DNA from: an uncultured Gammaproteobacteria bacterium
Lineage (GTDB): Bacteria; Patescibacteriota; Microgenomatia; UBA1406; GWC2-37-13
Assembly (NCBI GenBank): GCA_964587115.1
Contig: CAZPKD010000002.1
Span: 1-24,059 of the forward strand
Length of the DNA: 24,059 nucleotides
Direction of reading: 5' to 3'
Shown: positions 5,611 through 21,853 of the stretch, in pieces
Position numbering within the stretch: the first letter of the stretch is position 1
How the letters are laid out: each line of letters starts with the position of its first letter
The notes under the pieces: model-generated
Databases searched by the model: none
Told to the model about the DNA's origin: nothing
What the model saw: the letters and a program-made list of their open reading frames with translations, nothing else
Program-made: the position numbers and the translations under genes

Positions 5611-5635
5611 ACTTAAATTCTAGCTTATTTTAAGC

Positions 5636-6895
5636 TTAAAATGCAAGAAGAATCCCTAAACCAAGAATTATCAGACTCCCACTAGCGATTGCCATGGGAA
5701 TAGTGTTGGTCCCTGAAGTTGGTCGAGGAGGAATTGTCGCCGATATCTGAATTGTTTCGGTTGGAGTAATCACGGTTGGACTAGCCTCTGCGGTAGCTGA
5801 ACCTAAAACCTGCTCCCCTGATTTGGCAATGGTAAATTTGCGGACAACCTTAATATCTTGACCGTTAGTATCCTTGGTGGTTAGAGTCATCGTATGACTA
5901 CCGGCTGGTAGTTTTTCATTCAAAGAAAGCTTCCAGAGACCTTCTTTGTCTGCAGTTACTCTAAATGAATAACTCACGGGGGAGTTAATGGTAATAAATA
6001 CATCCGAATTGGGGATAGCCAAACCTTTAATTAAAGGACTTTGGGCAGGAATAATACTATTTTCTTTTGGAAATAAAATCTCAATCTGACCGGTCTTAGA
6101 TTGACTCGTGGCTGATAGGACATTATCTTTCTCACCGAACTTGTAATCATTACCAATAATCAGTGTTTGTGGTAAGGGCCCTAGATTATCGGCATTTGTC
6201 TCAACGTTTGTTTTTAAACCATCCTCGCTAATTATTTCTATTAATCCCGATTCATTTTTTTCAATTGGTCTAATTTTTCCGGATTGAGAGTCGACTACTC
6301 CATTTAGTGGAATCAACCATTCACCGGTCAGTTTAGTTAGGGCGAAAAGAGAGTCGCTGTTTTTAAAGGTTAAAATAACCGCCGCATCGGTTAGAGGTAA
6401 TCCATTACTCTTAATAATTTTTCCATAGGCTGGTTTTAAACTAGCGGTCTGGTTCACACCTGTCGGGGTCTGAAATGAAAAAGATTTTTGATCGGTTTGC
6501 CCAACAACTTGATCTTGGCTAATAATCTTAAAATAATATTTCTTTCCAGATTGCAGATTTTTAATTAAAACATAGTGGTTTAAATATTGACCTTTTTTTC
6601 CGCTAGTATCTCTGTCATCAGAAAAGGTCTGCTTAAGGTCATTTTCTTTTTCACCCAGAATAAGCCAACCTTTTTCTTTTGTGTCGGTTTGCCAATAAAC
6701 ACCGGCCTGATTCGATAAAAGATTAACTACTTTTATCTGGCGGACAGCTTTTTTTGTCGCTCTTGAAGGCAAAGAGCTGGTTTGAAAAAAACGGCTAAGA
6801 ATAAAGATCACCAAAACTAAAATCACCACTAAAACCGGAGTGGGAATTTTTATTGAATTTTGTTGCTGGTTTAAATAATAGCGCGAATAAACCAT
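5636..6895 (-). CDS. Multidomain surface protein: FN3/purple-acid-phosphatase N-terminal-like domain plus Ig-like domains, C-terminal RPTSG plus TM
   Basis: FN3-like pattern (VYWQTD...HYVLIKNLQSGKKYYFKI), a second beta-sandwich (YGKI..NGLPL..AAV...GEWLIPL) and an Ig-like segment (IKGLAIPNSDV...ADKEGLWKL....LPAGSHTMTL). TM segments at both ends. Confidence 0.75.
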   Translation of the reverse strand: MVYSRYYLNQQQNSIKIPTPVLVVILVLVIFILSRFFQTSSLPSRATKKAVRQIKVVNLLSNQAGVYWQTDTKEKGWLILGEKENDLKQTFSDDRDTSGKKGQYLNHYVLIKNLQSGKKYYFKIISQDQVVGQTDQKSFSFQTPTGVNQTASLKPAYGKIIKSNGLPLTDAAVILTFKNSDSLFALTKLTGEWLIPLNGVVDSQSGKIRPIEKNESGLIEIISEDGLKTNVETNADNLGPLPQTLIIGNDYKFGEKDNVLSATSQSKTGQIEILFPKENSIIPAQSPLIKGLAIPNSDVFITINSPVSYSFRVTADKEGLWKLSLNEKLPAGSHTMTLTTKDTNGQDIKVVRKFTIAKSGEQVLGSATAEASPTVITPTETIQISATIPPRPTSGTNTIPMAIASGSLIILGLGILLAF

Positions 6896-6896
6896 A

Positions 6897-7082
6897 TTAA
6901 GGGTTTCTTTGTTTTAATATCTCAAGAACCTGACTATCAATTTTAATATTTTCCACCACAACATACTTGGTGGTTAACCCTTGGTTGGTAGTCGCCTTTA
7001 CTCTGTATATTTCCAGTAAAACCCAGGCAACCACGGTAAAAAATATTGTTAAGGAAATATAAAACAACTCTTTTTGGTTCAT
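6897..7082 (-). CDS. Small single-pass membrane protein downstream of PilO-like gene
   Basis: 61 aa with one TM (LFYISLTIFFTVVAWVLL). 4-bp overlap with the upstream gene and 1-nt gap to the downstream gene. Confidence 0.7.
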   Translation of the reverse strand: MNQKELFYISLTIFFTVVAWVLLEIYRVKATTNQGLTTKYVVVENIKIDSQVLEILKQRNP

Positions 7083-7657
7083 AAATAATATCCTTCGATA
7101 TTCATCTCAATGTTTAATAATCCACTCGTTGAACTTTCTTTTGTATCCCGTCCAATAACGGCACTTTGGACCATTTTTATCCTTCTTTGACTATATAAGT
7201 CTTTGGTTAATTTAACAAAGTCATCAAAGCTCCCTTTAAGAATAACATTAAACACAACTGATTTTAAAGTATCTTCTTTTTGACTTTTTTTAAGATTGAT
7301 ATCGACAATGGTTAATTTATCTATTACAAGATTATTATTTTTAATTGATGAATTCAAATCTTCAAGCAGCTTGTTTACTTGCGGCATTTTAGAAATAGCC
7401 TCCCCAAGGACACTGAGGTTATCACGATTTACCTCCAGTGACGACTGAATCGAGACTAAATTTTGAATTTGTTTTTCAAGAAAAGTATCATCTCTCACTA
7501 AATCGTCAATTTTCTTGTTCGCTTGAAAAATTGACAAAAGGTTTGGTCTAATGACAAAAAATATAAAAAAGGAGAAAATAATTAAAAAAAGGATTGTATA
7601 AGTATAATCAATGGTCTTCTTAGTAAAGATTTTTTTAAACGATAGTTTTTTTTCCAT
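7079..7657 (-). CDS. pilO: Type IV pilus alignment protein PilO-like
   Basis: TM, coiled coil, then a ferredoxin-like pattern (LKGSFDDFVKLTKDLYSQRRIKMV). Lies directly after a PilN-like gene. Confidence 0.7.
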   Translation of the reverse strand: MEKKLSFKKIFTKKTIDYTYTILFLIIFSFFIFFVIRPNLLSIFQANKKIDDLVRDDTFLEKQIQNLVSIQSSLEVNRDNLSVLGEAISKMPQVNKLLEDLNSSIKNNNLVIDKLTIVDINLKKSQKEDTLKSVVFNVILKGSFDDFVKLTKDLYSQRRIKMVQSAVIGRDTKESSTSGLLNIEMNIEGYYL

Positions 7658-7659
7658 GT

Positions 7660-8181
7660 TTAATTTAGTTTTGATAACTCTATCTCAAAACTCAGGCCTA
7701 CGTCTATTTTTTTTAATGATTTAAGATTAATGTTGGCAAACTTTTTGTCAGTTTTAAGCCTCTGATAAAAACTCTGAATTAACGAGCCATTATCTCCAAA
7801 ACCCTCGAGCTTCATTGAGTTGTCGGTAACCGTTAGTTTCGATAAATACAATTTGTCTGGGAAGATGGTTGAAAGATAATTGAGAATGTCAAGAAACTTA
7901 TCTTGTCTTTCAATAATGTGCTTTACTTCCTTTATCTGAAAATCAGTTGTCTTAGCCTCAACAAATAACGGTTGGGTTACTTCAATTATTTCCTTTTTTT
8001 GCCCCACTGAATCTTGATAATCAACTATCTCCTGATCTACTTTAAACTTATAAAAAAACACTCCAATAACAATAATCTGCGTAATAATCAAAATATACCT
8101 CAAATAAGAGAGGGCAAAATATATTAGCTTATCGGTTAAACTTTCTTTTTTCCTCGATAAAAGGTTAATTTTATATTTCAT
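7660..8181 (-). CDS. pilN: Type IV pilus alignment protein PilN-like
   Basis: N-terminal INLL motif (PilM-binding INLLP-like), TM, coiled coil, and PilN core (LSTIFPDKLYLSKLTV...LEGFG....IQSFYQRLK..KKFANI). Confidence 0.75.
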   Translation of the reverse strand: MKYKINLLSRKKESLTDKLIYFALSYLRYILIITQIIVIGVFFYKFKVDQEIVDYQDSVGQKKEIIEVTQPLFVEAKTTDFQIKEVKHIIERQDKFLDILNYLSTIFPDKLYLSKLTVTDNSMKLEGFGDNGSLIQSFYQRLKTDKKFANINLKSLKKIDVGLSFEIELSKLN

Positions 8182-8429
8182 TTTTTGTTCAAAAATTTAG
8201 CCACAAGAGATTTTAACCTGGCGGCTTTATTTTTGTGAATAACCTTTTTTTTATAAGCCTTATCAATTTTTGAATAGGCTTTTTTAACTGAACTAATTAA
8301 ATTTTCCTTTTTTTTACTGTTTTTGACATCTTTAATAGCTTTTTTATACTCTTTTTCATAAACAGTGTTTCTTTTAGTTCTTTTGACATCTTGTCTTAGT
8401 TTCTTTTTAGCTGACTTAATTATTGGCAT
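8178..8429 (-). CDS. rpsT: 30S ribosomal protein bS20
   Basis: MPIIKSAKKKLRQ N-terminus, IDKA.KK.VIHKNKAARLKS C-terminal signature, 83 aa and highly basic. Confidence 0.95.
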   Translation of the reverse strand: MPIIKSAKKKLRQDVKRTKRNTVYEKEYKKAIKDVKNSKKKENLISSVKKAYSKIDKAYKKKVIHKNKAARLKSLVAKFLNKK

Positions 8430-8436
8430 GAAATAA

Positions 8437-8461
8437 CACCTCCTCTCAAATAGTATTGAGA
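8437..8461 (-). promoter_or_regulatory. Strong Shine-Dalgarno for rpsT with adjacent 6-bp hairpin
   Basis: AGGAGGTG (8444-8437) lies 7 nt before ATG 8429. An inverted repeat TCTCAA-N6-TTGAGA (8444-8461) has the -10-like TACTAT as its loop. Confidence 0.75.
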
Positions 8462-8462
8462 A

Positions 8463-8918
8463 TTAATAATCCTTGTTAAAAACTTTTTCGCCATAATCTC
8501 CACTAAAATTCAGTGATAATTGTATTTTTCCCACCACCTCATGATAAACACAACTTCCAGATGAACAAGTTCCCAGAGTTATTTTTTTTTCAATATCAGA
8601 TTCTCCTTCTTGGAGAGAAATTCTTGCCATAACTCCTTGTAATCCTTGTTCAGCCGTTTTATATGATAGCTGATACTCAATTGCGGTTGTCCCTTTTGGA
8701 ATATTGTTAATAGTCAAAATTACTTCTTTACCTGAAGTTGTTTTCTCTAATGATGCTTTAACTGAAGCATCGACGGTTGGAATTAAAACCTCAGTTGGAA
8801 AATTATCTTCACTTACTTTTTCTGTATTTCCGTTACTCTTACTAAAAATAATAAAGGCAACCAAAACTATCCCCAGAATCACTAAACCAACAATGATGAT
8901 TTTGTTTTTATTTTTCAT
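8463..8918 (-). CDS. Hypothetical single-pass membrane protein with LGTCSSGSC motif
   Basis: N-terminal TM, beta-rich ectodomain and a closely spaced Cys pair. Sits between glyQS and rpsT on the same strand. Confidence 0.75.
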   Translation of the reverse strand: MKNKNKIIIVGLVILGIVLVAFIIFSKSNGNTEKVSEDNFPTEVLIPTVDASVKASLEKTTSGKEVILTINNIPKGTTAIEYQLSYKTAEQGLQGVMARISLQEGESDIEKKITLGTCSSGSCVYHEVVGKIQLSLNFSGDYGEKVFNKDY

Positions 8919-8930
8919 AAAAAAAACAAC

Positions 8931-10199
8931 TTATAAATGATCGGTTAAGTATTTTTCTAACTGATCAACTTTTAATCTAATCTGTGTCATTGAATCACGA
9001 TCGCGAACCGTAAGAGTATCATCTTCTAATGTCTGAAAATCAACCGTAACGCAAAAAGGGGTACCAATTTCATCTTGAGAAAAATAACGTTTTCCGATGT
9101 TTCCTCGATCATCCCAGTTGACTTGAAGTCTATTTTTTAATTCCTTATAAATATTCCAAGCTTTTTCTTTTAATTTTGGTTTATTAGCTAATAAAGGGAA
9201 TATGGCTGCTTTATACGGAGCAATTTTAGGGTTTAGCTTTAGGACTACCCTACCCTCAATTTCTTTATAAGCGTCTATTAAGAAGAAGAGTGTTGCTCGA
9301 TCGACTCCGCCTGAGGTTTCAATTACCCAAGGAGTATATTCTTCATTCGTGTCTTTATCTTTATAGGTTAATTTATGTTTGGATAGGTCATAATCGCCCC
9401 GATGATGAATCCCCTCAAACTCAGACCAACCAAAAGGAGCGTCGTATTCTATGTCGGTAGCAAATCTAGCATAGTGGGCTCTTTTTTCGGGTTCGTGGTC
9501 GTGAAATCTTAACTTATTCTTATTTATACCCAATGACTGATACCAAGACAATCTTTGACTTTTCCAGTATTCAAAATTTTCAAGGCCGCTTTTTTCATCG
9601 GGCTTAATAAAGTATTCTAATTCCATTTGTTCAAATTCGCGACTACGGAAAGTAAAGTTCCCCGGAGTAATCTCATCTCTGAAGGCTTTACCAATTTGGG
9701 CAATTCCAAAAGGAATCTTAACCCGTGACGAATCGACAATATTTTTAAAATTAACAAAAACCCCTTGGGTAATTTCACCCCTAAGATAAGATTTCTGTTT
9801 TGGCTCAACTGTTCCTAGGAGCACTTCAACCATCAGATTAAAAGTTTTTACTTCAGTCCAACTGTTTTTTCCTTGGTGTTCTTGATTGTGATCAGAAAGC
9901 ATCTTTTTATCATCAGCCTTAATCCTTTTATGACAGACTTTACACTCGATTAACGGATCGGTAAAGGCTTTAAGATGGCCAGACCTATCCCAGACGGTCG
10001 GATTCATGACAATAGCCGCATCAATACCAACAACATCTTCTCTGGAATAAACCAGACTCTTCCACCATTCTCTTTTTATGTTGTTTTTAAGCTCTGTTCC
10101 CAATGGACCATAGTCCCAAAAACCAGCAAAACCACCATAGATTTCACTCCCAGGATATATAAAACCTCTTCTTTTGCATAAAGAAACAATTTTATCCAT
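8931..10199 (-). CDS. glyQS: Glycine--tRNA ligase, alpha2 (homodimeric) type
   Basis: KRRGFIYPGSEIYGG, YGPLG, YLRGEIT, motif 2 AFRDEITP..FTFRSREFEQME, motif 3 IETSGGVDR and HGTP anticodon domain (IGKRYFSQDEIGTPFCVTVD). Confidence 0.95.
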   Translation of the reverse strand: MDKIVSLCKRRGFIYPGSEIYGGFAGFWDYGPLGTELKNNIKREWWKSLVYSREDVVGIDAAIVMNPTVWDRSGHLKAFTDPLIECKVCHKRIKADDKKMLSDHNQEHQGKNSWTEVKTFNLMVEVLLGTVEPKQKSYLRGEITQGVFVNFKNIVDSSRVKIPFGIAQIGKAFRDEITPGNFTFRSREFEQMELEYFIKPDEKSGLENFEYWKSQRLSWYQSLGINKNKLRFHDHEPEKRAHYARFATDIEYDAPFGWSEFEGIHHRGDYDLSKHKLTYKDKDTNEEYTPWVIETSGGVDRATLFFLIDAYKEIEGRVVLKLNPKIAPYKAAIFPLLANKPKLKEKAWNIYKELKNRLQVNWDDRGNIGKRYFSQDEIGTPFCVTVDFQTLEDDTLTVRDRDSMTQIRLKVDQLEKYLTDHL

Positions 10200-10248
10200 A
10201 AAACTTATTTTTTAATAAAAATATTACAGATTTTAACCTGTGCTTTCA

Positions 10249-10773
10249 TTATATAACAAAGTTAGGCAGTTTTTCACGAATTAACTCTTCTAAAAAGAGC
10301 TTCTGTTCATCAAAAGCCATGTTTCTTTTGGAGTAACCGAATATTGATAAGAACTTATTAATATAGGTTGTCATATTAACCTGAGTAATGTTATTTTTTG
10401 ATATATCAATTAATACTTTCTTAGTCAAATTGTAGGCGGTAATTTCTTTTTGTTCTTCAGGTAATAGTCGATCAAGAATAAAAAATAAATTATACAGAAA
10501 GCCAATTTTTCTCTCATCTTTTTTTATATTAGAAAAGGCGCTAATAAGGTCTGTTTGTTGAAGATATAGATAATCACCTTTTTTATTAATAACCACTTTA
10601 ATTAAGTTTCCGGTCTGAATATGGGGAAGACGACGACTGGTAATTTTTTTTACTCCTTTAGCTAAAATTCTTGTTTTGCCTAATTCTTTAGTAAATAGAG
10701 TTAAAATTAAGTCTTTTTCCAATAAAGAACGTTTCATCAAAACAATCGCCTCTGTTTTTATGGTTTTCCGCAT
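10249..10773 (-). CDS. recO: DNA repair protein RecO (short)
   Basis: RecO_N OB-fold pattern (EAIVL...LEKDLILTLFTKELGK..ILAKGVKK..SRR). Overlaps the upstream peptidase by 16 bp. Confidence 0.85.
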   Translation of the reverse strand: MRKTIKTEAIVLMKRSLLEKDLILTLFTKELGKTRILAKGVKKITSRRLPHIQTGNLIKVVINKKGDYLYLQQTDLISAFSNIKKDERKIGFLYNLFFILDRLLPEEQKEITAYNLTKKVLIDISKNNITQVNMTTYINKFLSIFGYSKRNMAFDEQKLFLEELIREKLPNFVI

Positions 10774-11837
10774 AGATAAAGAAGTTCTTTGAGAATCAGA
10801 TAATAATCATTAAGGCTTTTCATATCAACCCACTCATTGTCAGTGTGAAGACCATATCCAATCGGCCCAAACTCAACACCAGAACAGCCGACTTCGTCAT
10901 AATGTCTTAAGTCAGAAGCACCATTTTTTCTGATTACTTTTGGAACCTTTTTGATTATTTTTTTAGAAACTTCCTGAATTAACTTAATATATGGATTGTT
11001 TTTTTCTGTAAAATGGACTGGTTCATTCTCACTGATAGTAATTTTTGACTCGGGCGGTGCAAATTTTCTTAATTTAGTAAGAATATTTTTAGCGTCGCTC
11101 GGAACATAACGTATATCACAAAAAATACTACAATCATCGGCCACTTTATTAAATGTTTTATTGGTACTTTCAATTCGCGCCACATTTATAGTTGTTTCCC
11201 AAACCGCTTTTTTTGGAACCGGATACTGTGTTCTAATTTTGTTAAGAATTTTGTTAGCTTTTATTATCGCATTATCTCCTTGCCATGGATAAGCACCATG
11301 AGCAGTTTTTCCAAAAACAGTATACTTTATCCAGATAATTCCTTTTGCTTCATTACCTATATCGAAGTTTGTCTGCTCCCCAACCAAAACAAAATCACTT
11401 CTCACTCCCTGTTCTACCTGATATTTGGTTCCGTTGAACCCACCTATTTCTTCATCAGTAACAATTTGAAGTCCTATCGGAACCGTTAGCTTTTTAGCCA
11501 TCTCCTTAAAAGCTAATATTTCAGCAACCGCAGCTCCCTTCATGTCAAAAGCACCCCGACCATATAGTCGATTATTCTTCTCTTTTGGTATATATTGACC
11601 ATCTTTGGCCGAAACAACATCTAAATGGGCGTTAAAAAGCATTTTAAACTTTCTTGGCCGCGTCTTAGTATTGTAAGCTAAAAAACTGGGAATACCATCT
11701 TTTATAAATTCTTCTAGGTGATATTCTTTTACCTCATTCTTTGCCAAAGCAATTGCCTCCGTTAGTCCCTTTGAATTATCGTTTGTTGACCGAACAGATA
11801 TTAGTTTTTTTGTCAGAGATAATATTTTGTTAAACAT
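10758..11837 (-). CDS. M20 family metallopeptidase/deacylase (DapE/ArgE-like)
   Basis: Metal-ligand motifs NAHLDVV, GRGAFDMKG, DEEIGG, VGEQT, HGAYPW and C-terminal LHTDNE. Confidence 0.92.
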   Translation of the reverse strand: MFNKILSLTKKLISVRSTNDNSKGLTEAIALAKNEVKEYHLEEFIKDGIPSFLAYNTKTRPRKFKMLFNAHLDVVSAKDGQYIPKEKNNRLYGRGAFDMKGAAVAEILAFKEMAKKLTVPIGLQIVTDEEIGGFNGTKYQVEQGVRSDFVLVGEQTNFDIGNEAKGIIWIKYTVFGKTAHGAYPWQGDNAIIKANKILNKIRTQYPVPKKAVWETTINVARIESTNKTFNKVADDCSIFCDIRYVPSDAKNILTKLRKFAPPESKITISENEPVHFTEKNNPYIKLIQEVSKKIIKKVPKVIRKNGASDLRHYDEVGCSGVEFGPIGYGLHTDNEWVDMKSLNDYYLILKELLYLCGKP

Positions 11838-11849
11838 ATCGATTATTTT

Positions 11850-11922
11850 ACTCTATTTTTCCTGACTTAACACAATTTGAGATAGATAATCTCTACGATA
11901 AGAGGTATAGGAAAAAAAGAGT
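11850..11922. repeat. 14-bp imperfect inverted repeat enclosing two small hairpins
   Basis: ACTCT(A)TTTTTTCCT (11850-11864) versus AGGAAAAAAAGAGT (11909-11922). Internal GAGAT-N5-ATCTC and CTCT-N6-AGAG. Confidence 0.6.
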
Positions 11923-11950
11923 TAATATAACTATCCCTAAATGGTTCATA

Positions 11951-11988
11951 TAAGAAAAGACCCCGCCTTTAGCGGGGTAAATTTTTTT
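11951..11988 (-). terminator. Intrinsic terminator hairpin (possibly bidirectional)
   Basis: ACCCCGC (11960-11966), loop, GCGGGGT (11972-11978). Followed by CUUUUCUU on the minus strand and AAAUUUUUUU on the plus strand. Confidence 0.8.
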
Positions 11989-12080
11989 AATTGGCTTTAT
12001 TTAATCATAATTTCCCCGCCACACATGACGTGGTCTTTTGGAAAATAATGAATGATAAAACCTGCTTCTCCATGATTATT
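11951..12080 (-). ncRNA. Candidate structured leader/attenuator RNA with 22-codon ORF (MEKQVLSFIIFQKTTSCVAGKL, 12073-12005)
   Basis: Bounded by a sigma70-like promoter and a terminator, with mutually exclusive pairings found by eye (see findings). No known Rfam family recognised. Confidence 0.45.
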
Positions 12081-12082
12081 TC

Positions 12083-12110
12083 ATTAAAGTTAGATGACAA
12101 TATTTGTCAA
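12083..12110 (-). promoter_or_regulatory. Sigma70 promoter TTGACA-N16-TTTAAT overlapped by the palindrome TGACAA-TAT-TTGTCA
   Basis: Perfect -35 at 12110-12105 and a 5/6 -10 at 12088-12083. Palindrome at 12095-12109. Confidence 0.6.
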
Positions 12111-12114
12111 GATG

Positions 12115-13944
12115 TTATTTGTTTTTCAGTTCTTTATCAACGGTGAACAAACCATCATAAAGGACTCTTCCATTAAAATCTACTTTAATCTTTTGGTCAT
12201 CAATCCCTGGCTGTTTTTGGATTAATAATTTATAATCCTTGTTGACGAGTGAAGATGGCAATTCATATTTAATGTTAACCGTTGCCTTACCTAAAGGATT
12301 GACAGTTAGAAAGCCTTCAAAAACGGTTTTCCCCAAATCATTATAAGTTTGTACCGGTTTTATCGATCCTTCAAAACTAATTAACTTTGACCCTTGAGGC
12401 ACATAAATTCTAACCCAGTTTCTTAGCGTTGCGTTCAGACATAATCCTCCCCTTTCTAGATTACAGTCAGAGTGAGGATATGGATTCCGATAATCAATGA
12501 TTACTTCACGAGTAATTTTATTAGATGATAATTTTGCCTTAGAAGTAATTGTTTCGGAAACAAATAAATTGGCTTTAGCACCGGCAAAGTTAACATTGTT
12601 GACGTGTAAATAATCTCCGTCATATTTTTTAATTGAGCCGGCAAAATTAAGCTTTTCTGCCGCTGTTTGTAGATTTTTGTCGGTAAAATACAATAAAATA
12701 TGTTTTTCTTGAAGATTTTTAAACATCTGTTGAGCCAAAGTGCCCCAATATTTTGACGGTGAAAAACCAAGAGCTTTATATAAAAGCTCATACATCAATT
12801 CTCCTAAAATTCCCTTACGATTAGTTCTTTCATAGGGAACCGGTCGATCAACCATGTCAAAAAGTTGATATAAAACCTGAGGACAGTCGCATCGACTATC
12901 AATTTTTGAAGAGAAAATAACTCCGCCAGCTTTTGTGTCACCAAAAATAGTTAACATATCAACCAATACCTTTGAATCAAGCATAATAATCCCATCATAG
13001 TCAACTTTAACGTCGCTTAATTTATACAAACTATTAAAAAGCTTAATTGAACTCGGTAGATCTGGAGACAAATTACTATCGCGAATGTAAAATTTATAGA
13101 CTTCCTTATGATAGGTTAAAATCTCTTTAGGAGCTGTGGGATGGGAAGAAATACTGTTGTCTAGGGAATAGATATCATCTGATTTTTGAATCTTTAGTTT
13201 TCCATCCTTGACCTTAAAGATAGCATAGGCGGTTAAAAATCCACCAGTAGCCCGTCTTTCTTTATCGTTTTGAAAAAGTAGTAAGTAGGTTTGTTCTTTT
13301 TTTGTGCCAAAAATTTCTGGCAGTCTTTTAACCAGAGGTTTAGCGTCAACAAATAATGAGGCCAAACCAACAAACTGTTCTTTAATATTTACTAGCCTCG
13401 AACGAACAACCGTTTTGCCTAATTTCTCTGGATAACGATTTGGATTGATCTTGGCGATTCTTACTTCTGCTTGATTAATATCTTCTGAAATAACATCAAT
13501 GTTGGATAAAACTTTATCCAGGGTTAATATGGCTGTTTGCAACCTGTCTTCGGACGATCTTTCAACAAACGAAGTTTGACCTTTTTTAAACCCAATCAAA
13601 TCTGCGTAGGGATTAATGGTCTTGACTATCTCTTGTCCTGCCTTAACTAGATAACTACCCGCTTCAACTCCATTCTTAAGATCGGCAAAATAAGGAATAA
13701 AGGATAACCAGTAGACTGATTTTGCTTCCTTTTCCAACAAAGAATACTTCCCAGAAAAAGATTCTAGTTTGGTATTTAAAAGATCAATATCGTTTTTAGA
13801 GAAAGTTTCTTTAAGTTGTTTGGCTTCAGCTATAACTCCGTTGGTCGCTGTCTTTATCTTTATAAACGGCCTAACAATAAAAAAATATCCTAAGATTACT
13901 AATAATAAAATAGCGATAATAATAGTTTTTTGTTTTTTTTTCAT
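12115..13944 (-). CDS. DUF4012-type large single-pass extracytoplasmic protein
   Basis: N-terminal TM, helical stalk, signature LLLFQNxxExRATGGF, RDSNLSPD, DGII.LD and C-terminal beta-sandwich (NWVRIYVPQGSKL...YKLLIQKQPG). Confidence 0.8.
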   Translation of the reverse strand: MKKKQKTIIIAILLLVILGYFFIVRPFIKIKTATNGVIAEAKQLKETFSKNDIDLLNTKLESFSGKYSLLEKEAKSVYWLSFIPYFADLKNGVEAGSYLVKAGQEIVKTINPYADLIGFKKGQTSFVERSSEDRLQTAILTLDKVLSNIDVISEDINQAEVRIAKINPNRYPEKLGKTVVRSRLVNIKEQFVGLASLFVDAKPLVKRLPEIFGTKKEQTYLLLFQNDKERRATGGFLTAYAIFKVKDGKLKIQKSDDIYSLDNSISSHPTAPKEILTYHKEVYKFYIRDSNLSPDLPSSIKLFNSLYKLSDVKVDYDGIIMLDSKVLVDMLTIFGDTKAGGVIFSSKIDSRCDCPQVLYQLFDMVDRPVPYERTNRKGILGELMYELLYKALGFSPSKYWGTLAQQMFKNLQEKHILLYFTDKNLQTAAEKLNFAGSIKKYDGDYLHVNNVNFAGAKANLFVSETITSKAKLSSNKITREVIIDYRNPYPHSDCNLERGGLCLNATLRNWVRIYVPQGSKLISFEGSIKPVQTYNDLGKTVFEGFLTVNPLGKATVNIKYELPSSLVNKDYKLLIQKQPGIDDQKIKVDFNGRVLYDGLFTVDKELKNK

Positions 13945-13947
13945 AAT

Positions 13948-14622
13948 TTAAACAGCTCCACTACCGGTAAGCATAACGATAGGAGTCTTAATGATAATTT
14001 TTAAATCTACTAATAATGATACATTATCAACATAAGAAGCATCAATGGCAATTCTTTTATCAAAATTAATCTCTGATCTTCCGGTTACTTGCCAAAGACC
14101 GGTAATTCCAGGTTTAACAGAAAGAACCTTAGAAACCAATTTTTGAGTATGAGGAAATTTTTTTTGCTGTTCCTTGAGCTCGTCTGGATAATAAGCTCGT
14201 GGCCCAACCAAACTCATTTCTCCCTTAAGAACATTAAAAAACTGAGGTGTCTCATCAATTGAATGCTTGCGGATGAAACGACCAACTTTGGTTACTCGCG
14301 GGTCGTTTCTTAGCTTATAGCTTCCCTGCTGATATTCCCTAAATAGTTTTTTGAAACGCGGATCGTTACGTAAAAGATAATGAGCGTTAACAATCATCGA
14401 GCGAAATTTATACATTTTAAAACGACCGCCATTTTCGCCGACTCTTTCGGGAACATCAGCTAAAATCGGGCCTTTTGAATCAGCTCTTATAATAATGGAG
14501 GTAACTAGATAAACCGGTGAAAAAACAATAAGCAGAAGTATCGAACCGATAATATCGATTAATCTTTTTGTGTATTTGCGATAACCCTTACCTTTAAACA
14601 AATAAAGTAAATTAACGGTCAT
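13948..14622 (-). CDS. Small monotopic phosphoglycosyl transferase (bacterial sugar transferase; PglC/WbaP C-terminal family)
   Basis: KRLIDI membrane segment, RVG..G..FKMYKFRSM, DPRVTKVGRFIRKHSIDETPQFFNVLKGEMSLVGPR (catalytic DE dyad) and PGITGLWQV. Confidence 0.93.
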   Translation of the reverse strand: MTVNLLYLFKGKGYRKYTKRLIDIIGSILLLIVFSPVYLVTSIIIRADSKGPILADVPERVGENGGRFKMYKFRSMIVNAHYLLRNDPRFKKLFREYQQGSYKLRNDPRVTKVGRFIRKHSIDETPQFFNVLKGEMSLVGPRAYYPDELKEQQKKFPHTQKLVSKVLSVKPGITGLWQVTGRSEINFDKRIAIDASYVDNVSLLVDLKIIIKTPIVMLTGSGAV

Positions 14623-14653
14623 TTCTATATTGTATCAAAATTAACTTATGTTT

Positions 14654-15739
14654 TTACATTAGGTTCTCATGCTCTGTTCCTTCAAAATTCTTAACCAAGC
14701 GTTGAAGTTTGGAAATGGAGTTTTTTTTAGTAATCAAAATTACATCATTGGTATTAACAATAATGTTTTCATCCAAATCAATGGCCACAATTAATTTTTT
14801 GTCTTCATAATTATAGATTAGAGAATCACGCACATGCTCCATGTGGACTTTTCCACGAATTATATTCTCATACTGATGAGTTTCAAGAGCTTCTTTCAGG
14901 GCCTCCCAAGCACCAATATCACTCCAACCAATGTCTTCCATTACTACCAAAGCATCTTTCTTGTCTAAATTTTCAAGAACGGCGTTATCAAAGTTTATTC
15001 CTTCGACTTGACCATAATTGTCTTTAAGAACTGTCTCATAATTTTTCTTTCCGTAGGAAGAAAGAATCTTTTCGGTATTGCTAAAAATATTTGGGGCAAA
15101 CCTTTTGAAAGCTTCATAAATAAAGACGGGAGTAGTCACGAAATAACCTAAGTTCCAGGCATATTGACCAGAGCGATAAAATTCTTGGGCAGTTTTTTCG
15201 TCTGGCTTATATTTAAAACCTTCAAACTGATGAAAGTGAATCCCTTTCACAGTCTTAACTTTTTTTCCTAGATGAATATAACCAAGATTGACGCTAGGGT
15301 ATCTTGGTTTATGGGCGACAAAAATAATTTTATTAGGGTCTTTTTCAATAAACTCACCACAAATCTGCAATATTTTTCTAAATAGGGCAACTTTTTTTAC
15401 TAAATGATCACTCCATAAAATAGCAATTGGCTGTTTGGGGTATGTTTTATGGAAAATTCCCATTGCTAAAGCCATCGCCGGAGCGACATCTTTTTTTTCC
15501 GGTTCAAAAATAAAGTTTTTTGCAGGAATTTGTTTTAACTGCTGCTTAATTATGTCTTTATAGGCAATATTGGTTGAGATGTAAATATCTTCTTCTCTAA
15601 AGTTGGGAATCAATCTGTCAATCGCTAACTGCAATGTTGATTTGTCGCCAACTAATTTTTCAAATTGTTTGGGAGATTTTTTCCTTGATAGTGGCCATAG
15701 TCTCGTTCCTGTACCACCGGCAAAAATAATTGCTTTCAT
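14654..15739 (-). CDS. manC: Mannose-1-phosphate guanylyltransferase (no cupin isomerase domain)
   Basis: FAGGTGTRLWPLSR..SPKQF, EPEKKD, SDH, F.YKPD, WNLGYF and WSDIGAW. Confidence 0.88.
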   Translation of the reverse strand: MKAIIFAGGTGTRLWPLSRKKSPKQFEKLVGDKSTLQLAIDRLIPNFREEDIYISTNIAYKDIIKQQLKQIPAKNFIFEPEKKDVAPAMALAMGIFHKTYPKQPIAILWSDHLVKKVALFRKILQICGEFIEKDPNKIIFVAHKPRYPSVNLGYIHLGKKVKTVKGIHFHQFEGFKYKPDEKTAQEFYRSGQYAWNLGYFVTTPVFIYEAFKRFAPNIFSNTEKILSSYGKKNYETVLKDNYGQVEGINFDNAVLENLDKKDALVVMEDIGWSDIGAWEALKEALETHQYENIIRGKVHMEHVRDSLIYNYEDKKLIVAIDLDENIIVNTNDVILITKKNSISKLQRLVKNFEGTEHENLM

Positions 15740-15747
15740 TTAAGTAA

Positions 15748-16890
15748 TCAATTTTTAACTAAGTCTAATAATTTATTTTCAAAATTAACTCGGTTAAATT
15801 TTTGTCCTTGTTTTGGTCCATTAACCTTAGTGCTTTGCTTCAAATTGTAAGATAACTTATTAAATCTTTCAAGCGCTGCCGCAAGAGATTCTTGATTTTG
15901 ATCGTTAAAAAAAAGACCGGTGGTATTTTCAAGAACGGTTTCTTCAGCCCCACCTTTTCGATAAGCAATTACAGGACAACCAAAAAATTGTGATTCGAGT
16001 GACACATAGCCAAAATCCTCTTCCTGAGGCATAATCAATGTTTCTGCCGATGCATAAAGTTGAGCCAACTCACTATCACTTACGTAGGAAATAAAGGTAA
16101 TATTTTTTTTTGCATCATGTTTTAGTTTTTTTTCTTCACTCCCTTGACCAACAATAACTAGATTTAAGTTTGATTTTTGATTAAAGATCTTAATAACCAA
16201 ATCAACCTTTTTATAAGGCTCTAATCTAGAAACAACAAGAAAGAACTTTTTACTTTGAGTCCTTTTTAATTTTTTATTTATATTTTTGATTTTTGATATT
16301 TGATGTTTGATACTACTCCAATAGTCTATATCAAACGGTGGATAAATTATTTGCGAATCTCTTTGATAATATTTATTCGTTCTTTTGGCAACCGCGCTAG
16401 AGATTGAAATTAGAACATCTGGTCTTTTTGAAACTATCAAATCCCACTTTTTTAATGAATTCAAGTAAGGAGTCACAAAAAAATTCAATATTTTATTTTT
16501 AAAATAAAGATCTTTTTGAAACCAAAAATAACGAGTTGGCGTTAATAGATAACAAATATGGCGTGTGTTTGGCTTGGTAATGATAGACTTGGCAAACGAG
16601 GAGGAAACTGAAATCACTAATTGATAGTTGGAAAAGTCAAACGTTTCAAAAGCATAAGGATAGAAAGGTAAGGAAAAGATTCTTCTTTTTTTAATGAAGT
16701 TGGGTAGTTTTTGAATAAAAGAGGTTTTTGCCTGAAGGTTTTTTGCCCAAGGAGCCTTTTCTAAATTCTGATAAGAGGTGTAAAAATCTGCACTAGGAAA
16801 CAAATGTTTAAATTCAAGAAGGACTCTTTCTACTCCACCCCACTTATCAAGCCAATCATAAACGATAGCAATTTTCAAATGGTTAGACAT
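15748..16890 (-). CDS. GT4 glycosyltransferase (WbaZ-like, putative mannosyltransferase)
   Basis: YDWLDKWGGVERVL, VSRLEPYKKVD and EDFGYVSLESQFFGCPVIA (EX7E motif). Confidence 0.9.
   Translation of the reverse strand: MSNHLKIAIVYDWLDKWGGVERVLLEFKHLFPSADFYTSYQNLEKAPWAKNLQAKTSFIQKLPNFIKKRRIFSLPFYPYAFETFDFSNYQLVISVSSSFAKSIITKPNTRHICYLLTPTRYFWFQKDLYFKNKILNFFVTPYLNSLKKWDLIVSKRPDVLISISSAVAKRTNKYYQRDSQIIYPPFDIDYWSSIKHQISKIKNINKKLKRTQSKKFFLVVSRLEPYKKVDLVIKIFNQKSNLNLVIVGQGSEEKKLKHDAKKNITFISYVSDSELAQLYASAETLIMPQEEDFGYVSLESQFFGCPVIAYRKGGAEETVLENTTGLFFNDQNQESLAAALERFNKLSYNLKQSTKVNGPKQGQKFNRVNFENKLLDLVKN
16277..16311 (-). repeat. Heptanucleotide tandem repeat ATCAAAN x4 plus one degenerate copy inside the GT4 gene
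   Basis: Coding strand reads ATCAAAC ATCAAAT ATCAAAA ATCAAAA ATATAAA and encodes IKHQISKIKNIN. Confidence 0.75.
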
Positions 16891-17977
16891 AACTTCTGTA
16901 TAAAGCTAAAATTTCTTGAGCCATCTTCTTAAAAGAGAACCTGTCCATTGTTATTTTATAAGAATGCTTGTCCTTTGCCTGTATAAACTGGTCAATCTGA
17001 GTCTTAATTTCATTTTCATTATTAGGATCAAAAGACAAATAGCGGTTGCCAAGGAGTTCTTTAAAAACCTGTATATTTGAGGCAATAATGGGTAGTTGAT
17101 AATAAACCGCCTCAACAATCGGTAAACCAAAACCTTCAGATAACGTTGGGTGAATTAAAGCTTTGGCATTTTTATAAAAGAAAACCAAATCTTCTTTTTT
17201 GGGATTAAAATAGAATCTAATTCGTTTTTGCATATTAAGACTATTAATTAAAGTTTTTAACCGTATAGAAAAATAGTCGTTCGGTCCAACCAAAATCAAC
17301 TGATACTTATTTTTTGTTCTACTAAAAGCCTTGATTAATCTTTCAACGTTTTTATGGGGATAAAAATTACCAACATAAATAAAAAAATCTTCAACAAAAA
17401 GTTTTTTTAGATCTTGATTTTCTTTGGCTAAGGTTAGTTCTTTGTTTATACCCTCATAAACAGGAAAGATCTTATCTTTGAACCGAATACCATAATGCTT
17501 AATTATTTGTTCTTTAACGGCATTGGTCGGGGTAATAATCGCAGCTGAGTTTTTTATTTGCGAATTAATGACTAAACGATAAAAAAAATATTTTAATTCA
17601 TAAACAAGGCTCGATTTGGTTGACGATTTACCGGTTTTAAAAAAAAGCGGGGTCAAATCATGAAGCGTGGTGATAAATTTTCTTCGGTAAAAAACCGGGT
17701 AACTAAAGTAGGTAAAGTGCATTAGATCAAGTTTATCGCGGTTAATAATTTTCAGAAACCCAATCTGTTCGTCAAAAGTATGCCAATGGTAGTCAGCCTT
17801 TTTTTTTATAAAATGATTATTTTTAAAGTTAAACTTAGCAAAGTCATTGCTCGTTAGATAAACATAAAATTCAAGGTCTTTTAAATCTTCTTGCTGTAAA
17901 TAATTTAGGAGGTTTCTGATGTAAACACCAACTCCTGTTTGCGAGTAAAGTCGAGCGTCAATGCCAATTTTTTTCAT
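16883..17977 (-). CDS. GT4 glycosyltransferase (family 1 protein, putative mannosyltransferase)
   Basis: IGIDAR..SQTGVGVY, TLHDL, VGNFYPHKN and EGFGLPIVEA (EX7E motif). Confidence 0.9.
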   Translation of the reverse strand: MKKIGIDARLYSQTGVGVYIRNLLNYLQQEDLKDLEFYVYLTSNDFAKFNFKNNHFIKKKADYHWHTFDEQIGFLKIINRDKLDLMHFTYFSYPVFYRRKFITTLHDLTPLFFKTGKSSTKSSLVYELKYFFYRLVINSQIKNSAAIITPTNAVKEQIIKHYGIRFKDKIFPVYEGINKELTLAKENQDLKKLFVEDFFIYVGNFYPHKNVERLIKAFSRTKNKYQLILVGPNDYFSIRLKTLINSLNMQKRIRFYFNPKKEDLVFFYKNAKALIHPTLSEGFGLPIVEAVYYQLPIIASNIQVFKELLGNRYLSFDPNNENEIKTQIDQFIQAKDKHSYKITMDRFSFKKMAQEILALYRSYV

Positions 17978-18858
17978 TTTGTAAGTTTTCTTTTAATGTC
18001 GATAAAAGAATATACTAACCAATTGACTAAAAAGAGATTCTTTTTTTCATAATGCTTTCGATAAAATATTTTCATTGATTCATAAAAATGATTTTGCGTT
18101 CTGATTCTAACTTTCTGATCGTTATTTTTTAGCCCACTAATATACTTTAAATGAAGCACTTCATATAAAGGATAATAGATTATTATATATCCTAGTTCTT
18201 TAATTCTGAAAGAAAGGTCCAGATCTTCACCATACATAAAAAACTCCTTGTCAAAACCGCCTATTTTTTCAAGAATTTTTTTTCTTGTTAGAAAAAAAGC
18301 GCCTGTTGGTGAGTCAATTTCATGAATGGTCCTTAAATTCTTATGCGTCAGATGATAACCACCAAATAACCTGTTCAAAAATGGTAATTTTCCAAATATT
18401 TTTTCTAGCTTGGCATAATAACAGAAAGATCGCCAAACCGTGGGAAAACCACGATGTGAGGCTGGATCAATCTCATGGTCGGGTAAAACTACCTTAATGG
18501 TCATTACCCCAATTTCAGGCCGGTCATCCATTAGGGCAAAAAGGTCACCAAAATCCACCTCGCCCATCAGGGCGTCAGAGTTCAGATAAAGAATGTACTC
18601 TCCTTCACTGTTGGCAACACCAAGATTATTGGCTTTACCATAACCAAGATTTTTTTCACTTAAAACGACTTTTAAATTCGGCCATTGTCGAGCTTTGTCT
18701 TTTAATAGTTGTTGACTCCCGTCTGTCGAATCATTATCAACAACGACCACTTCATAGTCAAGAGGGTATTTCTGGAAGTTTTTTTTTATCCGTTGAAAAC
18801 ATTTGGCAGTTACCTCACGAGTATTGTAAGAAACGATAACAATTGAAAGTTTTTTCAT
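17974..18858 (-). CDS. GT2 glycosyltransferase (WbbL/rhamnosyltransferase-like)
   Basis: SIVIVSYN, VVDNDSTDGS, NLGYGKANN, YLNSD and FFMYGEDLDL. Start placed at ATG 18858 rather than TTG 18873 of the ORF track. Confidence 0.88.
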   Translation of the reverse strand: MKKLSIVIVSYNTREVTAKCFQRIKKNFQKYPLDYEVVVVDNDSTDGSQQLLKDKARQWPNLKVVLSEKNLGYGKANNLGVANSEGEYILYLNSDALMGEVDFGDLFALMDDRPEIGVMTIKVVLPDHEIDPASHRGFPTVWRSFCYYAKLEKIFGKLPFLNRLFGGYHLTHKNLRTIHEIDSPTGAFFLTRKKILEKIGGFDKEFFMYGEDLDLSFRIKELGYIIIYYPLYEVLHLKYISGLKNNDQKVRIRTQNHFYESMKIFYRKHYEKKNLFLVNWLVYSFIDIKRKLTK

Positions 18859-18873
18859 TAAAAACAAAAACAA

Positions 18874-19353: not shown

Positions 19354-19355
19354 AA

Positions 19356-19799: not shown

Positions 19800-19801
19800 A
19801 G

Positions 19802-20251: not shown

Positions 20252-20269
20252 TTTATCAATAAAAATGAT

Positions 20270-21196: not shown

Positions 21197-21219
21197 AATA
21201 TTTAAAAATTTATAAATTA

Positions 21220-21840: not shown

Positions 21841-21853
21841 ATAAAAATAAAAA

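Follow-up and report, generated by a model that had tools for sequence, protein, structure and literature searches.

The window, by which the whole stretch of 24,059 nucleotides analysed here is meant, carries on its minus strand an element that we take, with a probability of roughly 0.77, to be a ribosome-mediated transcription attenuator with a leader peptide, akin to those of the trp/phe/ilv/thr type, its function being deduced from its architecture and its relatives. The signal that it would sense is most likely the supply of phenylalanine and/or isoleucine. This reading is based on parts that can be located in the DNA (Table 1), on the statistical excess of the antiterminator pairing, on the conservation of the parts and the joint change of the paired regions across a family of homologous copies, and on the match between codon runs in the leaders and the genes that follow them.

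Table 1. Parts of the putative attenuator and of the gene behind it, with positions in the window
Feature	Positions	Strand	Basis or remark
-35 hexamer TTGACA	12110-12105	minus	read from sequence; same in relatives L043/L044
-10 hexamer TTTAAT	12088-12083	minus	16 nt past the -35 hexamer, 9 nt before the ATG
Leader ORF, 22 codons and UGA stop, MEKQVLSFIIFQKTTSCVAGKL	12073-12005	minus	ATG at 12073; translation predicted
Stop codon UGA of the leader ORF	12007-12005	minus	
Proposed sensing codons UUC AUU AUU UUC (F8 I9 I10 F11)	12052-12041	minus	putative sensor
Hairpin A basal helix, 5' arm GGUUUUAU	12062-12055	minus	minimum-energy folds and RNAalifold
Hairpin A basal helix, 3' arm AUAAAGCC	12000-11993	minus	minimum-energy folds and RNAalifold
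Region 1, AUUUUCC (12046-12040) and CCACG (12033-12029)	12046-12029	minus	minimum-energy fold; would sequester region 2
Region 2, GUGGCGGGGAAAUUA, antiterminator 5' arm	12022-12008	minus	duplex energy against shuffles
Region 3, AAUUUACCCCGCUA, common to antiterminator and terminator	11983-11970	minus	duplex energy against shuffles
Intrinsic terminator hairpin ACCCCGCU-AAA-GGCGGGGU	11978-11960	minus	top terminator-like site
U tract of the terminator, CUUUUCUU	11959-11952	minus	
Candidate second -10 box, TAAAAT, separated by 7 nt from the ATG of M20	11850-11845	minus	putative leaderless-type M20 promoter
M20 deacylase (ArgE/DapE family), first gene under proposed control	11837-10758	minus	Pfam and NCBIfam

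The initial annotation had described a promoter, a 22-codon ORF and, downstream, a terminator with a U tract, and all of them are found where it had placed them, the ORF having an equivalent in all 20 copies of the family. Because the -10 box is only 9 nt from the ATG, the 5' untranslated region would measure about 0-3 nt, so that the transcript, whose start is predicted from the sequence, would be near-leaderless. In two relatives that are 97% identical (L043/L044) the -10 box is the consensus TATAAT. The terminator stem has 8 bp, 6 of them G-C. Among the terminator-like sites at positions 5000-24059, the part of the window that was scanned, the hairpin ranked first, and it was the sole canonical terminator match in the window. 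Its 3' arm contains GGCGGGG, of which region 2 is a direct repeat. The end of an IS200/IS605 element was considered for this hairpin and rejected, since a search of the whole window allowing up to 3 mismatches gave a single copy and no transposase family or signature was found among the scanned genes; copies elsewhere, moreover, differ in sequence and are always paired with a promoter and an ORF, which also counts against such an origin.

The pairing between regions 2 and 3, proposed earlier from the sequence as an antiterminator, is borne out by its energy: the duplex reaches -17.0 to -17.6 kcal/mol, and when the upstream segment was dinucleotide-shuffled, 2/1000 and 0/1000 shuffles equalled it. 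Hairpin A, which would sequester region 2, has a minimum-energy fold of -21 kcal/mol (z = -2.4; 7/200 shuffles equally good). The inner helices claimed for it, AUUUUCC/GGGAAAU and CCACG/UGUGG, are present in that fold. The outer helix that had been proposed, UAAUCAU/AUGAUUA, did not hold: the two 7-mers are complementary, yet they lie outside the minimum-energy fold, and the 5' arm is probably located in part upstream of the transcript start. The outer helix backed by folding and comparison is instead GGUUUUAU/AUAAAGCC, plus UCAU/AUGA. All 8 pairs of this basal helix are kept in every sequence of a 6-member subfamily analysed with RNAalifold, with compensatory changes at 2 pairs, and a U.G pair of the window is replaced by C-G in L043/L044. 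Region 1:2 constitutes the weakest part of the model because its duplex alone does no better than shuffles, being matched by 134/1000 of them in the window and reaching p < 0.05 in 2 of 19 copies (combined p = 8e-4).

In the proposed mechanism, transcription would begin a few bases 5' of the AUG, and a ribosome would load on the near-leaderless ORF as RNA polymerase moves on. A ribosome reaching the UGA codon would mask region 2, leaving region 3 to pair with region 4, and the resulting ACCCCGCU/GGCGGGGU hairpin, together with the U tract, would end transcription. The outcome would be the same if no ribosome had loaded, as hairpin A would then sequester region 2. When charged tRNA is scarce, the ribosome would stall at the Phe/Ile codons 8-11, covering region 1 as well as the 5' arm of the basal helix, and the free region 2 would pair with region 3, so that no terminator forms and RNA polymerase reads through into the M20 deacylase, recO and glyS genes. 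The start of transcription, the translation of the leader and the stalling are all predictions drawn from the nucleotide sequence. In a ribosome-mask simulation of the window, the antiterminator was kept with the A site at codon 14 or earlier and lost beyond it, and the expected switch was obtained in 10 of 12 copies, the profiles of L057a and L057b being flatter or different. In the window, the leader stop codon starts 15 nt past the beginning of region 2; in the 11 copies tabulated it lies between -10 and +20 nt from that point. In the equilibrium fold of the truncated window transcript without ribosome, region 3 is about 70% paired, and hence the translation-free "off" state rests on a kinetic argument.

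The element belongs to an apparently undescribed family. Including the window, 20 copies were read in 10 Microgenomates lineages; they came from nhmmer searches, from a sequence-blind scan that looked for a terminator together with a region 2:3 duplex, and from reading sequences directly. A profile of 12 copies from outside the window matched positions 12072-11960 end to end (E = 4.6e-6), and this was the only significant match in the window. Nearly all copies have a sigma-70-type promoter with the -10 box 7-12 nt before the ATG, and in most copies read a -35 hexamer (TTGACA, TTGAAA, TTGATT or TTGACT) lies 16-18 nt before the -10 box; these promoters were assigned by eye, an automatic -35/-10 finder having misassigned several. 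A leader ORF of 13-32 codons begins at the same position in 20/20 copies (22 codons also in L052), and nearly all of them have a G+C-rich terminator followed by a U tract.

The region 2:3 pairing beat 1000 dinucleotide shuffles (p < 0.05) in 18 of the 19 copies tested (Fisher p = 1.8e-22). The terminator stems vary from copy to copy (CCCCGC, CCCGCC, CCUCC, CCUCUC), and regions 2, 3 and 4 change jointly, as in GGCGGGG/CCCCGC/GCGGGG, GGCGGG/CCCGCC/GGCGGG, UAGGAGG/CCUCCUA/GGGAGG, GAGAG/CCUCUC/GAGAGG and GGAGGUU/AACCUCC/GGAGGUU. The arms are thus kept with compensatory change, and the 1:2 / 2:3 / 3:4 logic put forward in the initial annotation appears to recur in the homologous copies. MAFFT alignments of all copies were 1-2 columns out of register between the CCCCGC-type and the CCCGCC-type stems, for which reason per-copy shuffle tests and the 6-member RNAalifold analysis were used. 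The window copy departs from most others in its interrupted U tract (CUUUUCUU), in a region 1 devoid of a Pro codon or C-run, in the 114-nt spacer that separates it from the M20 gene, and in the leaderless promoter that this gene may have to itself.

As had been recognised, the genes downstream in the window are a peptidase (the M20 deacylase), recO, which the M20 gene overlaps by 16 nt, and glyS, encoding a class II GlyRS. The best NCBIfam match of the M20 protein is the TIGR01910 subfamily, below its cut-off. An exact look-up retrieved no identical entry; in genome and metagenome contigs its matches are mostly from Actinobacteria, at 35-38% identity, and these scans yielded no syntenic relatives through the M20 protein. 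Relatives were reached through the DUF4012 neighbour, which is better conserved. In 10 of 11 lineages, the window's own counted, the M20 orthologue is preceded by a leader that belongs to this family. The operon upstream of the element comprises genes for ribosomal proteins, glycosyltransferases and DUF4012, and is probably also insulated by it.

The hairpin could be viewed as nothing but the constitutive terminator of that long upstream operon, followed by an unrelated promoter, with the ORF and the GGCGGGG repeat being coincidental. Indeed, an array of co-directional genes spanning 18 kb has no other canonical terminator, DUF4012 reaches its stop codon only some 135 nt upstream, and the M20 gene may own a promoter (TAAAAT, 7 nt, ATG), although the -35 hexamer of this candidate is weak; a leaderless M20 homologue in L004 shows the same layout (TATAAT, 7 nt, ATG). 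Coincidence would nevertheless have to account for an antiterminator pairing rarely equalled by shuffles, and for a module that recurs, with promoter, ORF and co-changing paired regions, before other genes. Elsewhere in the family, the U tract is usually followed at 0-40 nt by the start of the next gene, which leaves no room for a promoter of its own; its transcription must cross the terminator, and the latter is not a mere operon end. Furthermore, the element is missing from those relatives in which the M20 gene is missing, DUF4012 there running directly into recO with no terminator. A purely constitutive terminator is consequently very unlikely.

The proposal had been worded as an attenuator or a riboswitch; the homologues favour the first, and the second finds no backing, as there is no conserved aptamer-like core and no Rfam match. 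At gathering thresholds, the window and 7 loci returned tRNAs only, in agreement with the earlier statement that no T-box or other known aptamer was recognised. A search by E-value added only sub-threshold matches driven by the terminator (rimP, Arrc14 and Trp_leader), with Trp_leader scoring 19.6 bits against a threshold of 41 (E = 0.23) and the other leader families absent. T-box and riboswitch models gave no match in 11700-12300 at E values up to 10. SRP RNA, 5S, 6S and tmRNA, considered for their size, were rejected, having no Rfam match and a different architecture. A T-box or glycine riboswitch serving glyS was likewise rejected for lack of any model match, and the one Gly codon of the leader, which lies within region 2, argues against glycine sensing.

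These results bear on the possibility that the same 2:3 / 3:4 switch is set by an aptamer, by tRNA in a T-box-like manner or by an RNA-binding protein, the ORF being incidental. Hairpin A, which is long, conserved and imperfect, with internal loops, would suit such a reading, a protein could bind the pyrimidine-rich tracts, and the UUU/UUC runs would read Phe-rich in two of the three frames in any case. An aptamer or protein site would, however, leave unexplained the in-frame Thr runs before thrS and Phe run before pheS. The ATG found 7-12 nt past a -10 box in nearly all copies read, and the fixed distance of the stop codon from region 2, also speak against it. Across the copies compared there is no conserved core outside the stems, and together with the Rfam result this makes a switch operated by anything other than the ribosome highly improbable.

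Attenuation by a translating ribosome predicts a codon run ahead of region 2, and the statement in the initial annotation that no amino acid codon run was recognised can be refined. The stretch of 7 codons that ends 14 nt or more ahead of region 2 reads SFIIFQK in the window and thus contains the F-I-I-F codons. At the same position, the other 10 of the 11 copies tabulated read VIGILLI, LFIFILI, HVMFFFF, SIIVALL, QIIVVLL, FNFSFFF, NYFFFFF, INSMIRI, NGFFFFF and ITILLLG. The identity of the runs, which are of Phe, Thr or Ile/Leu/Val, can be compared with the genes that follow. The Thr runs TITTTT and TTTTTT precede thrS in two genomes, and a Phe run precedes pheS. Phe runs (e.g., FFFFF) also precede aminotransferase-M20 or GNAT-M20 operons, and Ile/Leu/Val-rich leaders (e.g., IIVVLLL) are found before ilvB-ilvN, M20 operons and a ThrC/IlvA-like enzyme. 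The run of the window copy is short and mixed, and U-rich codons are common in a genome of 35% G+C; the link of Phe/Ile to the putative M20 deacylase is in this case circumstantial.

A mixed run, and regulated genes that include recO and glyS, could also be expected from a ribosome-dependent attenuator responding to the general state of translation (delayed termination at Pro-stop, nascent-peptide arrest or antibiotic stalling) and not to a specific amino acid. Several leaders of the family contain X-Pro-stop or X-Pro (NP-stop, QP-stop, NPL, TPL, YPT, KPT), as do pheL and tnaC. The C-run of region 1 falls on the Pro codon, however, which may for that reason be dictated by the RNA and which is missing from the window copy. 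The fact that the run follows the downstream gene (Thr with thrS twice, Phe with pheS, Ile/Leu/Val with ilvBN) points to amino acid specificity, so that a general sensor of translation appears very unlikely.

The unit may finally be regarded as a stand-alone small gene, whose product, a 22-residue hydrophobic peptide or a small RNA of about 120 nt, would act in trans, possibly alongside attenuation. Its strong promoter and its terminator would suit such a gene, and so would hydrophobic peptides with a basic or polar N-terminus (MK.., or MEKQ in L045a); the window copy, moreover, is separated by 114 nt from the next gene, which may own a promoter. Trans-acting attenuator RNAs and leader peptides have been described in Sinorhizobium (PMC6614838, PMC7298713). 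Against a function in trans, the leader peptides share composition only across copies, at lengths of 13-32 residues, the position of the stop tracks the RNA regions and not the peptide, and most copies form one unit with the gene that follows them. This is a very unlikely alternative to the leader-peptide attenuator.

The element appears to have the general design of the Proteobacterial attenuators (trpL, pheL/pheA, pheM/pheST, ilvL, leuL, thrL, hisL), that is, a promoter-proximal ORF with regulatory codons, overlapping 1:2 / 2:3 / 3:4 pairings with an intrinsic terminator, and a stop codon sited for the terminating ribosome to mask region 2. The make-up of the leaders is also familiar: thrL contains ...TTITTTITITT..., ilvL is rich in V/I/L, and the composition of pheL is close to that of the family. 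The pheST operon is a precedent for a tRNA-synthetase operon under leader-peptide attenuation, as proposed here. The differences are nevertheless considerable. There is no sequence homology to the Rfam families Trp_leader, Phe_leader, Leu_leader, Thr_leader and His_leader, the phylum is another one, and the leader ORF is seemingly translated near-leaderless, without a Shine-Dalgarno sequence. Moreover, the family would regulate an M20 deacylase with GNAT, aminotransferase or 560-595-residue partners, and also thrS, whose control in E. coli is translational. T-box leaders occupy the same niche (aminoacyl-tRNA synthetase and amino acid genes, with a terminator/antiterminator choice reporting tRNA charging), but the element is much shorter, at about 120 nt, and charging would be read by the ribosome instead of through direct tRNA binding.

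Beyond Proteobacteria, leader peptides and terminators before amino acid biosynthesis and aminoacyl-tRNA synthetase genes are shared with Actinobacteria, where classical attenuators precede Streptomyces trpS and leuS and the actinobacterial trp and ilvB genes (Seliverstov et al. 2005, PMC1262725), and a three-hairpin attenuator precedes C. glutamicum ilvBNC (PMC11857589). Phylum, sequences and gene set all differ from those of the element, and no description of an M20 deacylase regulon in Actinobacteria was found in the literature. In mycobacteria, leaderless polycysteine short ORFs at many loci form a ribosome-directed regulon, or "ribulon" (Canestrari et al., bioRxiv 10.1101/834739). They resemble the element in having a leaderless first-cistron ORF in which stalling at a codon run reports amino acid supply; the element, however, has an intrinsic terminator as its switch, and its family carries runs of Phe, Thr or Ile/Leu/Val, not Cys.

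A full-text literature search retrieved no paper joining leader peptide and attenuation with Patescibacteria or the candidate phyla radiation, and a looser query gave nothing relevant on riboswitches or cis-regulatory RNAs in the latter, making this the first candidate leader-peptide attenuator for the phylum as far as that search goes. The family also suggests that near-leaderless translation is routine in the lineage. A broader view, which we hold tentatively and at slightly less than even odds, is that Microgenomates (Roizmanbacteria, Woesebacteria and relatives) possess a genome-wide, ribosome-read amino acid regulon built of near-leaderless leader-peptide attenuators. If so, it would span thrS, pheS, a hisC-like/hisS operon, the ilv genes and a hydrophobic-amino-acid module, consisting of the M20 deacylase with GNAT, an aminotransferase, an enolase-superfamily racemase-like enzyme or a 560-595-residue protein, and attenuation would be the role of most canonical intrinsic terminators in these genomes. 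The M20 deacylase of the window would be switched by the Phe/Ile-sensing copy in front of it, and the enzyme may serve to free or recover hydrophobic L-amino acids from their N-acyl precursors. The Geobacillus pathway of GNAT, N-succinylamino-acid racemase and M20 desuccinylase resembles the proposed module.

The candidate phyla radiation consists of uncultivated bacteria whose genomes are small and which are usually called poor in biosynthesis and regulation; to our knowledge, almost nothing is known about their gene control. The element and its 19 relatives would supply a concrete and testable regulatory mechanism for these organisms, and would be a candidate entry for RNA and small-ORF annotation resources. 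The family would also mark the genes with which the cell answers a shortage of Phe, Thr or Ile/Leu/Val, thereby giving functional leads for the M20 deacylase and for several protein families that have no Pfam or NCBIfam match.

Between a DUF4012 gene and an M20 metallohydrolase gene, both on the minus strand, lies a 277-nt gap that contains a candidate leader-peptide transcription attenuator, composed of a promoter, a 22-codon ORF, a long imperfect hairpin (hairpin A), an antiterminator and a terminator. The initial annotation had placed the promoter and ATG as TTGACA-N16-TTTAAT with the ATG 9 nt on, and the sequence reads exactly so. The predicted fold of the whole element is -40.1 kcal/mol (z = -4.4) and that of hairpin A by itself -21 kcal/mol (z = -2.4). 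The terminator ranked first in a consensus scan of 5000-24059 and occurs once in the window. The antiterminator proposed earlier, in which region 2 pairs with region 3, held up, its ~-17 kcal/mol being equalled by 2/1000 and 0/1000 dinucleotide shuffles; the outer helix proposed for hairpin A (UAAUCAU/AUGAUUA) has to give way to the supported basal helix listed below.

Features of the window locus in minus-strand order
Feature	Position	Strand	Remarks
DUF4012 gene	13944-12115	minus	
-35 box TTGACA	12110-12105	minus	16 nt before -10 box
-10 box TTTAAT	12088-12083	minus	9 nt before ATG
Leader ORF MEKQVLSFIIFQKTTSCVAGKL, then stop	ATG 12073, to 12005	minus	sequence reading
Hairpin A		minus	listed between leader ORF and terminator
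Basal helix GGUUUUAU/AUAAAGCC	12062-12055 with 12000-11993	minus	
Antiterminator GUGGCGGGGAAAUUA with AAUUUACCCCGCUA	12022-12008 with 11983-11970	minus	
Terminator hairpin ACCCCGCU-AAA-GGCGGGGU, then CUUUUCUU	11978-11960 (hairpin)	minus	
18-codon ORF MNHLGIVILTLFFLYLLS, then stop	11893-11949	minus	starts at 'cttatATG', two bases past the terminator's U tract
M20 gene	11837-10758	minus	

Further copies were sought with a profile, built first from the window and L052 copies and later from seven copies, and by a sequence-blind scan for a terminator with a strong region 2:3 duplex, which found the known copies again as well as new ones; one of its hits, inside a gene of the Microgenomates loci, was clearly false. 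In this way, 20 copies in 10 lineages, window included, were read out of ~480 kb of fetched DNA (L-numbers denote loci from other genomes, and suffixes separate copies in one locus). A profile made without the window matches it at 12072-11960 with E = 4.6e-6.

Copies read, with their leader peptides and downstream genes
Copy	Leader	Downstream
Window	MEKQVLSFIIFQKTTSCVAGKL	M20, recO, glyS
L052	MKNLVLSVIGILLINPLKGGRR	584-residue gene, M20, recO, glyS
L045a	MEKQALFIFILITPLSGGRM	157-residue gene
L045b	MKQHVMFFFFYPTYGGELF	GNAT-like, M20
L021a	MLRNSSIIVALLINP	562-residue gene
L021b	MKMKQIIVVLLLNP	M20
L047	MKITNLFNFSFFFSPTFCGAMLKS	HisC-like aminotransferase, M20
L056	MINKAINYFFFFFNPTKRGAII	GNAT-like, M20, HAD hydrolase
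L055	MNHTVLSINSMIRISQP	ThrC/IlvA-like enzyme with LeuA regulatory domain, RidA, 242-residue gene, M20
L057a	MTITRNGFFFFFTS	309-residue gene
L057b	...ALLTVVITILLLGA	595-residue gene, M20
L057c	MRILVTTCKRSQVLLTITTTTCVS	thrS, infC, rplT, pheST
L058a	MRNMELIIVSVLLFKGEV	class III aminotransferase, 475-residue gene, enolase-superfamily enzyme
L058b	MKFGNTFRFFFFKPTLSG	aminotransferase, M20
L058c	MKSVFKTTTTTTSQIGEELLWI	thrS
L058d	MIFKSTSFSFRIK	pheS
L060a	MDIRVLSMYFILITQP	ilvB, ilvN and following genes
L060b	MEPIAILILIMFFLFLFS	next leader (L060c), then M20
L060c	MRSDQVFNFHFYFFYPFSGES	65-residue gene, M20
L060d	MCIQATNHWYFYSFFREVGSTIT	HisC-like aminotransferase, hisS

Few canonical intrinsic terminators (G+C-rich stem plus U run) occur in the Microgenomates loci scanned; of the convincing ones, most are part of family leaders, and an 'AGUU' recurs directly 3' of the U tract in many of them. 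At L060:9288-9734 two attenuator-like leaders, one Ile/Leu/Phe-rich and the next Phe/Tyr-rich, stand in tandem before one M20 gene; the 87- and 65-residue 'genes' called over or between them may be spurious.

Pairing of regions 2 and 3 exceeds shuffles (p < 0.05) in 18/19 copies (Fisher p = 1.8e-22). Regions 2, 3 and 4 vary jointly: CCCCGC in region 3 goes with GCGGGG in regions 2 and 4, CCCGCC with GGCGGG and AACCUCC with GGAGGUU in the same places, CCUCCUA with UAGGAGG and UGGGAGG, and CCUCUC with GAGAG and GAGAGG, and in the pheS copy (L058d) CUGGUGGAGA is paired with UCUCCACCAG. All six copies sharing a 'VLS' start keep the 8-bp basal helix whole, with compensatory changes at two of its pairs. 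The weak point of the structural case is the region 1:2 pairing (the anti-antiterminator), which exceeds shuffles individually in 2/19 copies (combined p = 8e-4).

In 11 copies, the seven codons ending at least 14 nt 5' of region 2 form hydrophobic or Thr runs, and relative to the region 2 start the stop codon is at -10 to +20 nt. The ribosome footprint was masked codon by codon in 12 copies, the readout being region 3 held by its upstream partner before region 4 is made; in 10 of them the antiterminator is kept until the A site has moved beyond the run, and is then lost. The window switches between codons 14 and 15, and for the L057 thrS leader to form the antiterminator the A site must be on L15-C22, its Thr run; L057a and L057b gave flatter or different profiles. 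Runs match the genes behind them: Thr precedes thrS (twice), Phe precedes pheS and Ile/Leu/Val precede ilvBN. Together with the masking behaviour, this corresponds to the logic of classical attenuation. Since the next gene begins 0-40 nt past the U tract in most copies, its expression must come from readthrough.

Thr-run leaders (...TITTTT..., ...TTTTTT...) with antiterminator and terminator precede thrS at L057:10962-11092 and L058:16959-17075, and are read as a putative attenuator on the threonyl-tRNA synthetase gene in two different Microgenomates genomes. The rplT-pheS spacer at L058:20400-20500 holds the small ORF MIFKSTSFSFRIK with UCCACCAG / CUGGUGGAGA / UCUCCACCAG / GAGAGCUU and a U tract, a predicted attenuator with all four regions ahead of pheS, recalling pheM-pheST of E. 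coli; the automatic scan under-scored it because the terminator loop takes part in its region 2:3 pairing.

The protein neighbours of the window point to the Microgenomates group of the candidate phyla radiation (best matches Roizmanbacteria-like; G+C ~35%). The element lies within an 18-kb run of co-directional genes, with map, S13, S11, S4, rpoA, L17, L13, S9, glycosyltransferases, nucleotidyltransferase, sugar transferase and DUF4012 upstream and M20, recO, glyS, a hypothetical gene, S20, pilN and pilO downstream. Most window genes lack a Shine-Dalgarno sequence, and the -10-like hexamers 5-8 nt before the ATG of several operon-first genes suggest that leaderless mRNAs are common here (for example the gene starts at 2767 (+), 5610 (-), 11837 (-) and 14622 (-)). 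Unlike these, the S20 gene (8178-8429, minus) has a strong GAGGAGG.

Close relatives are limited to L043/L044 (M20 97% identical, same synteny and 277-nt spacer), which carry three substitutions within the element: one makes the -10 box consensus TATAAT, another is C12074 to U, and the third turns a basal-helix U.G pair into C-G, the same base changing the peptide (V5A). In L049/L050 and L054 (DUF4012 90% and 71% identical) the M20 gene and element are both absent, recO coming 22-32 nt after DUF4012 (L049:5831-5852). L051-L053 (DUF4012 76% identical) have a homologous element behind DUF4012, with TTGAAA-N17-TATATT, the 22-codon ORF MKNLVLSVIGILLINPLKGGRR, a long hairpin, GGCGGG and the terminator CCCGCC-GAAA-GGCGGG-U8; a 584-residue gene starts 0-36 nt past the U tract, then M20, recO and glyS. 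Leader and M20 gene (10758-12114) behave as a cassette, absent from L049, L050 and L054; that of L051-L053 additionally carries the 584-residue gene. The M20 gene and recO start overlap by 16 nt (10758-10773, minus), a sign that translation of the inserted gene may be coupled to that of the older recO-glyS operon.

The window M20 protein is an ArgE/DapE-family deacylase falling below every NCBIfam cut-off. Among lineages with enough upstream sequence, its orthologues stand behind a Phe-type or Ile/Leu/Val-type leader in 10/11 (the window's own counted), L004 being the exception. In L055, L056, L058 and L060, M20 lies within or beside ilv/leu-type genes (ilvB, ilvN, ilvC, ilvD, leuCD-like, leuB-like, RidA, a ThrC/IlvA-like enzyme carrying a fused LeuA regulatory domain); genes of the GNAT, aminotransferase and enolase-superfamily (MR_MLE) types are nearby as well. 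Among its partners, several (157, 309, 365-369 and 560-595 residues) had no NCBIfam match and at most weak Pfam families.

The window copy has its peculiarities. Its codon run is short and mixed (F-I-I-F), its region 1 is AUUUUCC plus CCACG (the other type is a C-run with a Pro codon), and its U tract is interrupted and lies 114 nt from the M20 ATG. This spacer contains a possible second, leaderless-type promoter (TAAAAT, 7 nt, M20 ATG) and the 18-codon ORF, which may be what is left of a first gene since lost, or else a second small ORF. The downstream genes of L045a and L056 ('agttatATG') start at the same position and that of L060a ('agttATG') one base closer to the U tract; the sole L043/L044 change within the ORF is synonymous. 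The long spacer does not exclude function, because the thrS copies (L057c, L058c) also have spacers of ~120 nt.

The Rfam check proposed initially was run and returned no family in the window at gathering thresholds (weak terminator-driven matches only by E-value), and none over any copy in the seven loci scanned; membership of any Rfam leader family was ruled out by score. In full-text searches, no paper brought leader peptides and attenuation together with Patescibacteria or the candidate phyla radiation, and a looser riboswitch/cis-regulatory search listed nothing relevant. For these reasons the element is rated new within a known kind of regulator, to which it is predicted to belong, outside every Rfam leader family. 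Read from sequence, its working principle would be that of the trp/phe/ilv/thr attenuators of Proteobacteria and of the classical type predicted for Actinobacteria (PMC1262725). A leaderless sensory short ORF is common to it and the mycobacterial polycysteine attenuators, but the latter act on translation, not termination (bioRxiv 10.1101/834739). The element would function by attenuation set by the position of the ribosome on the leader codon run.
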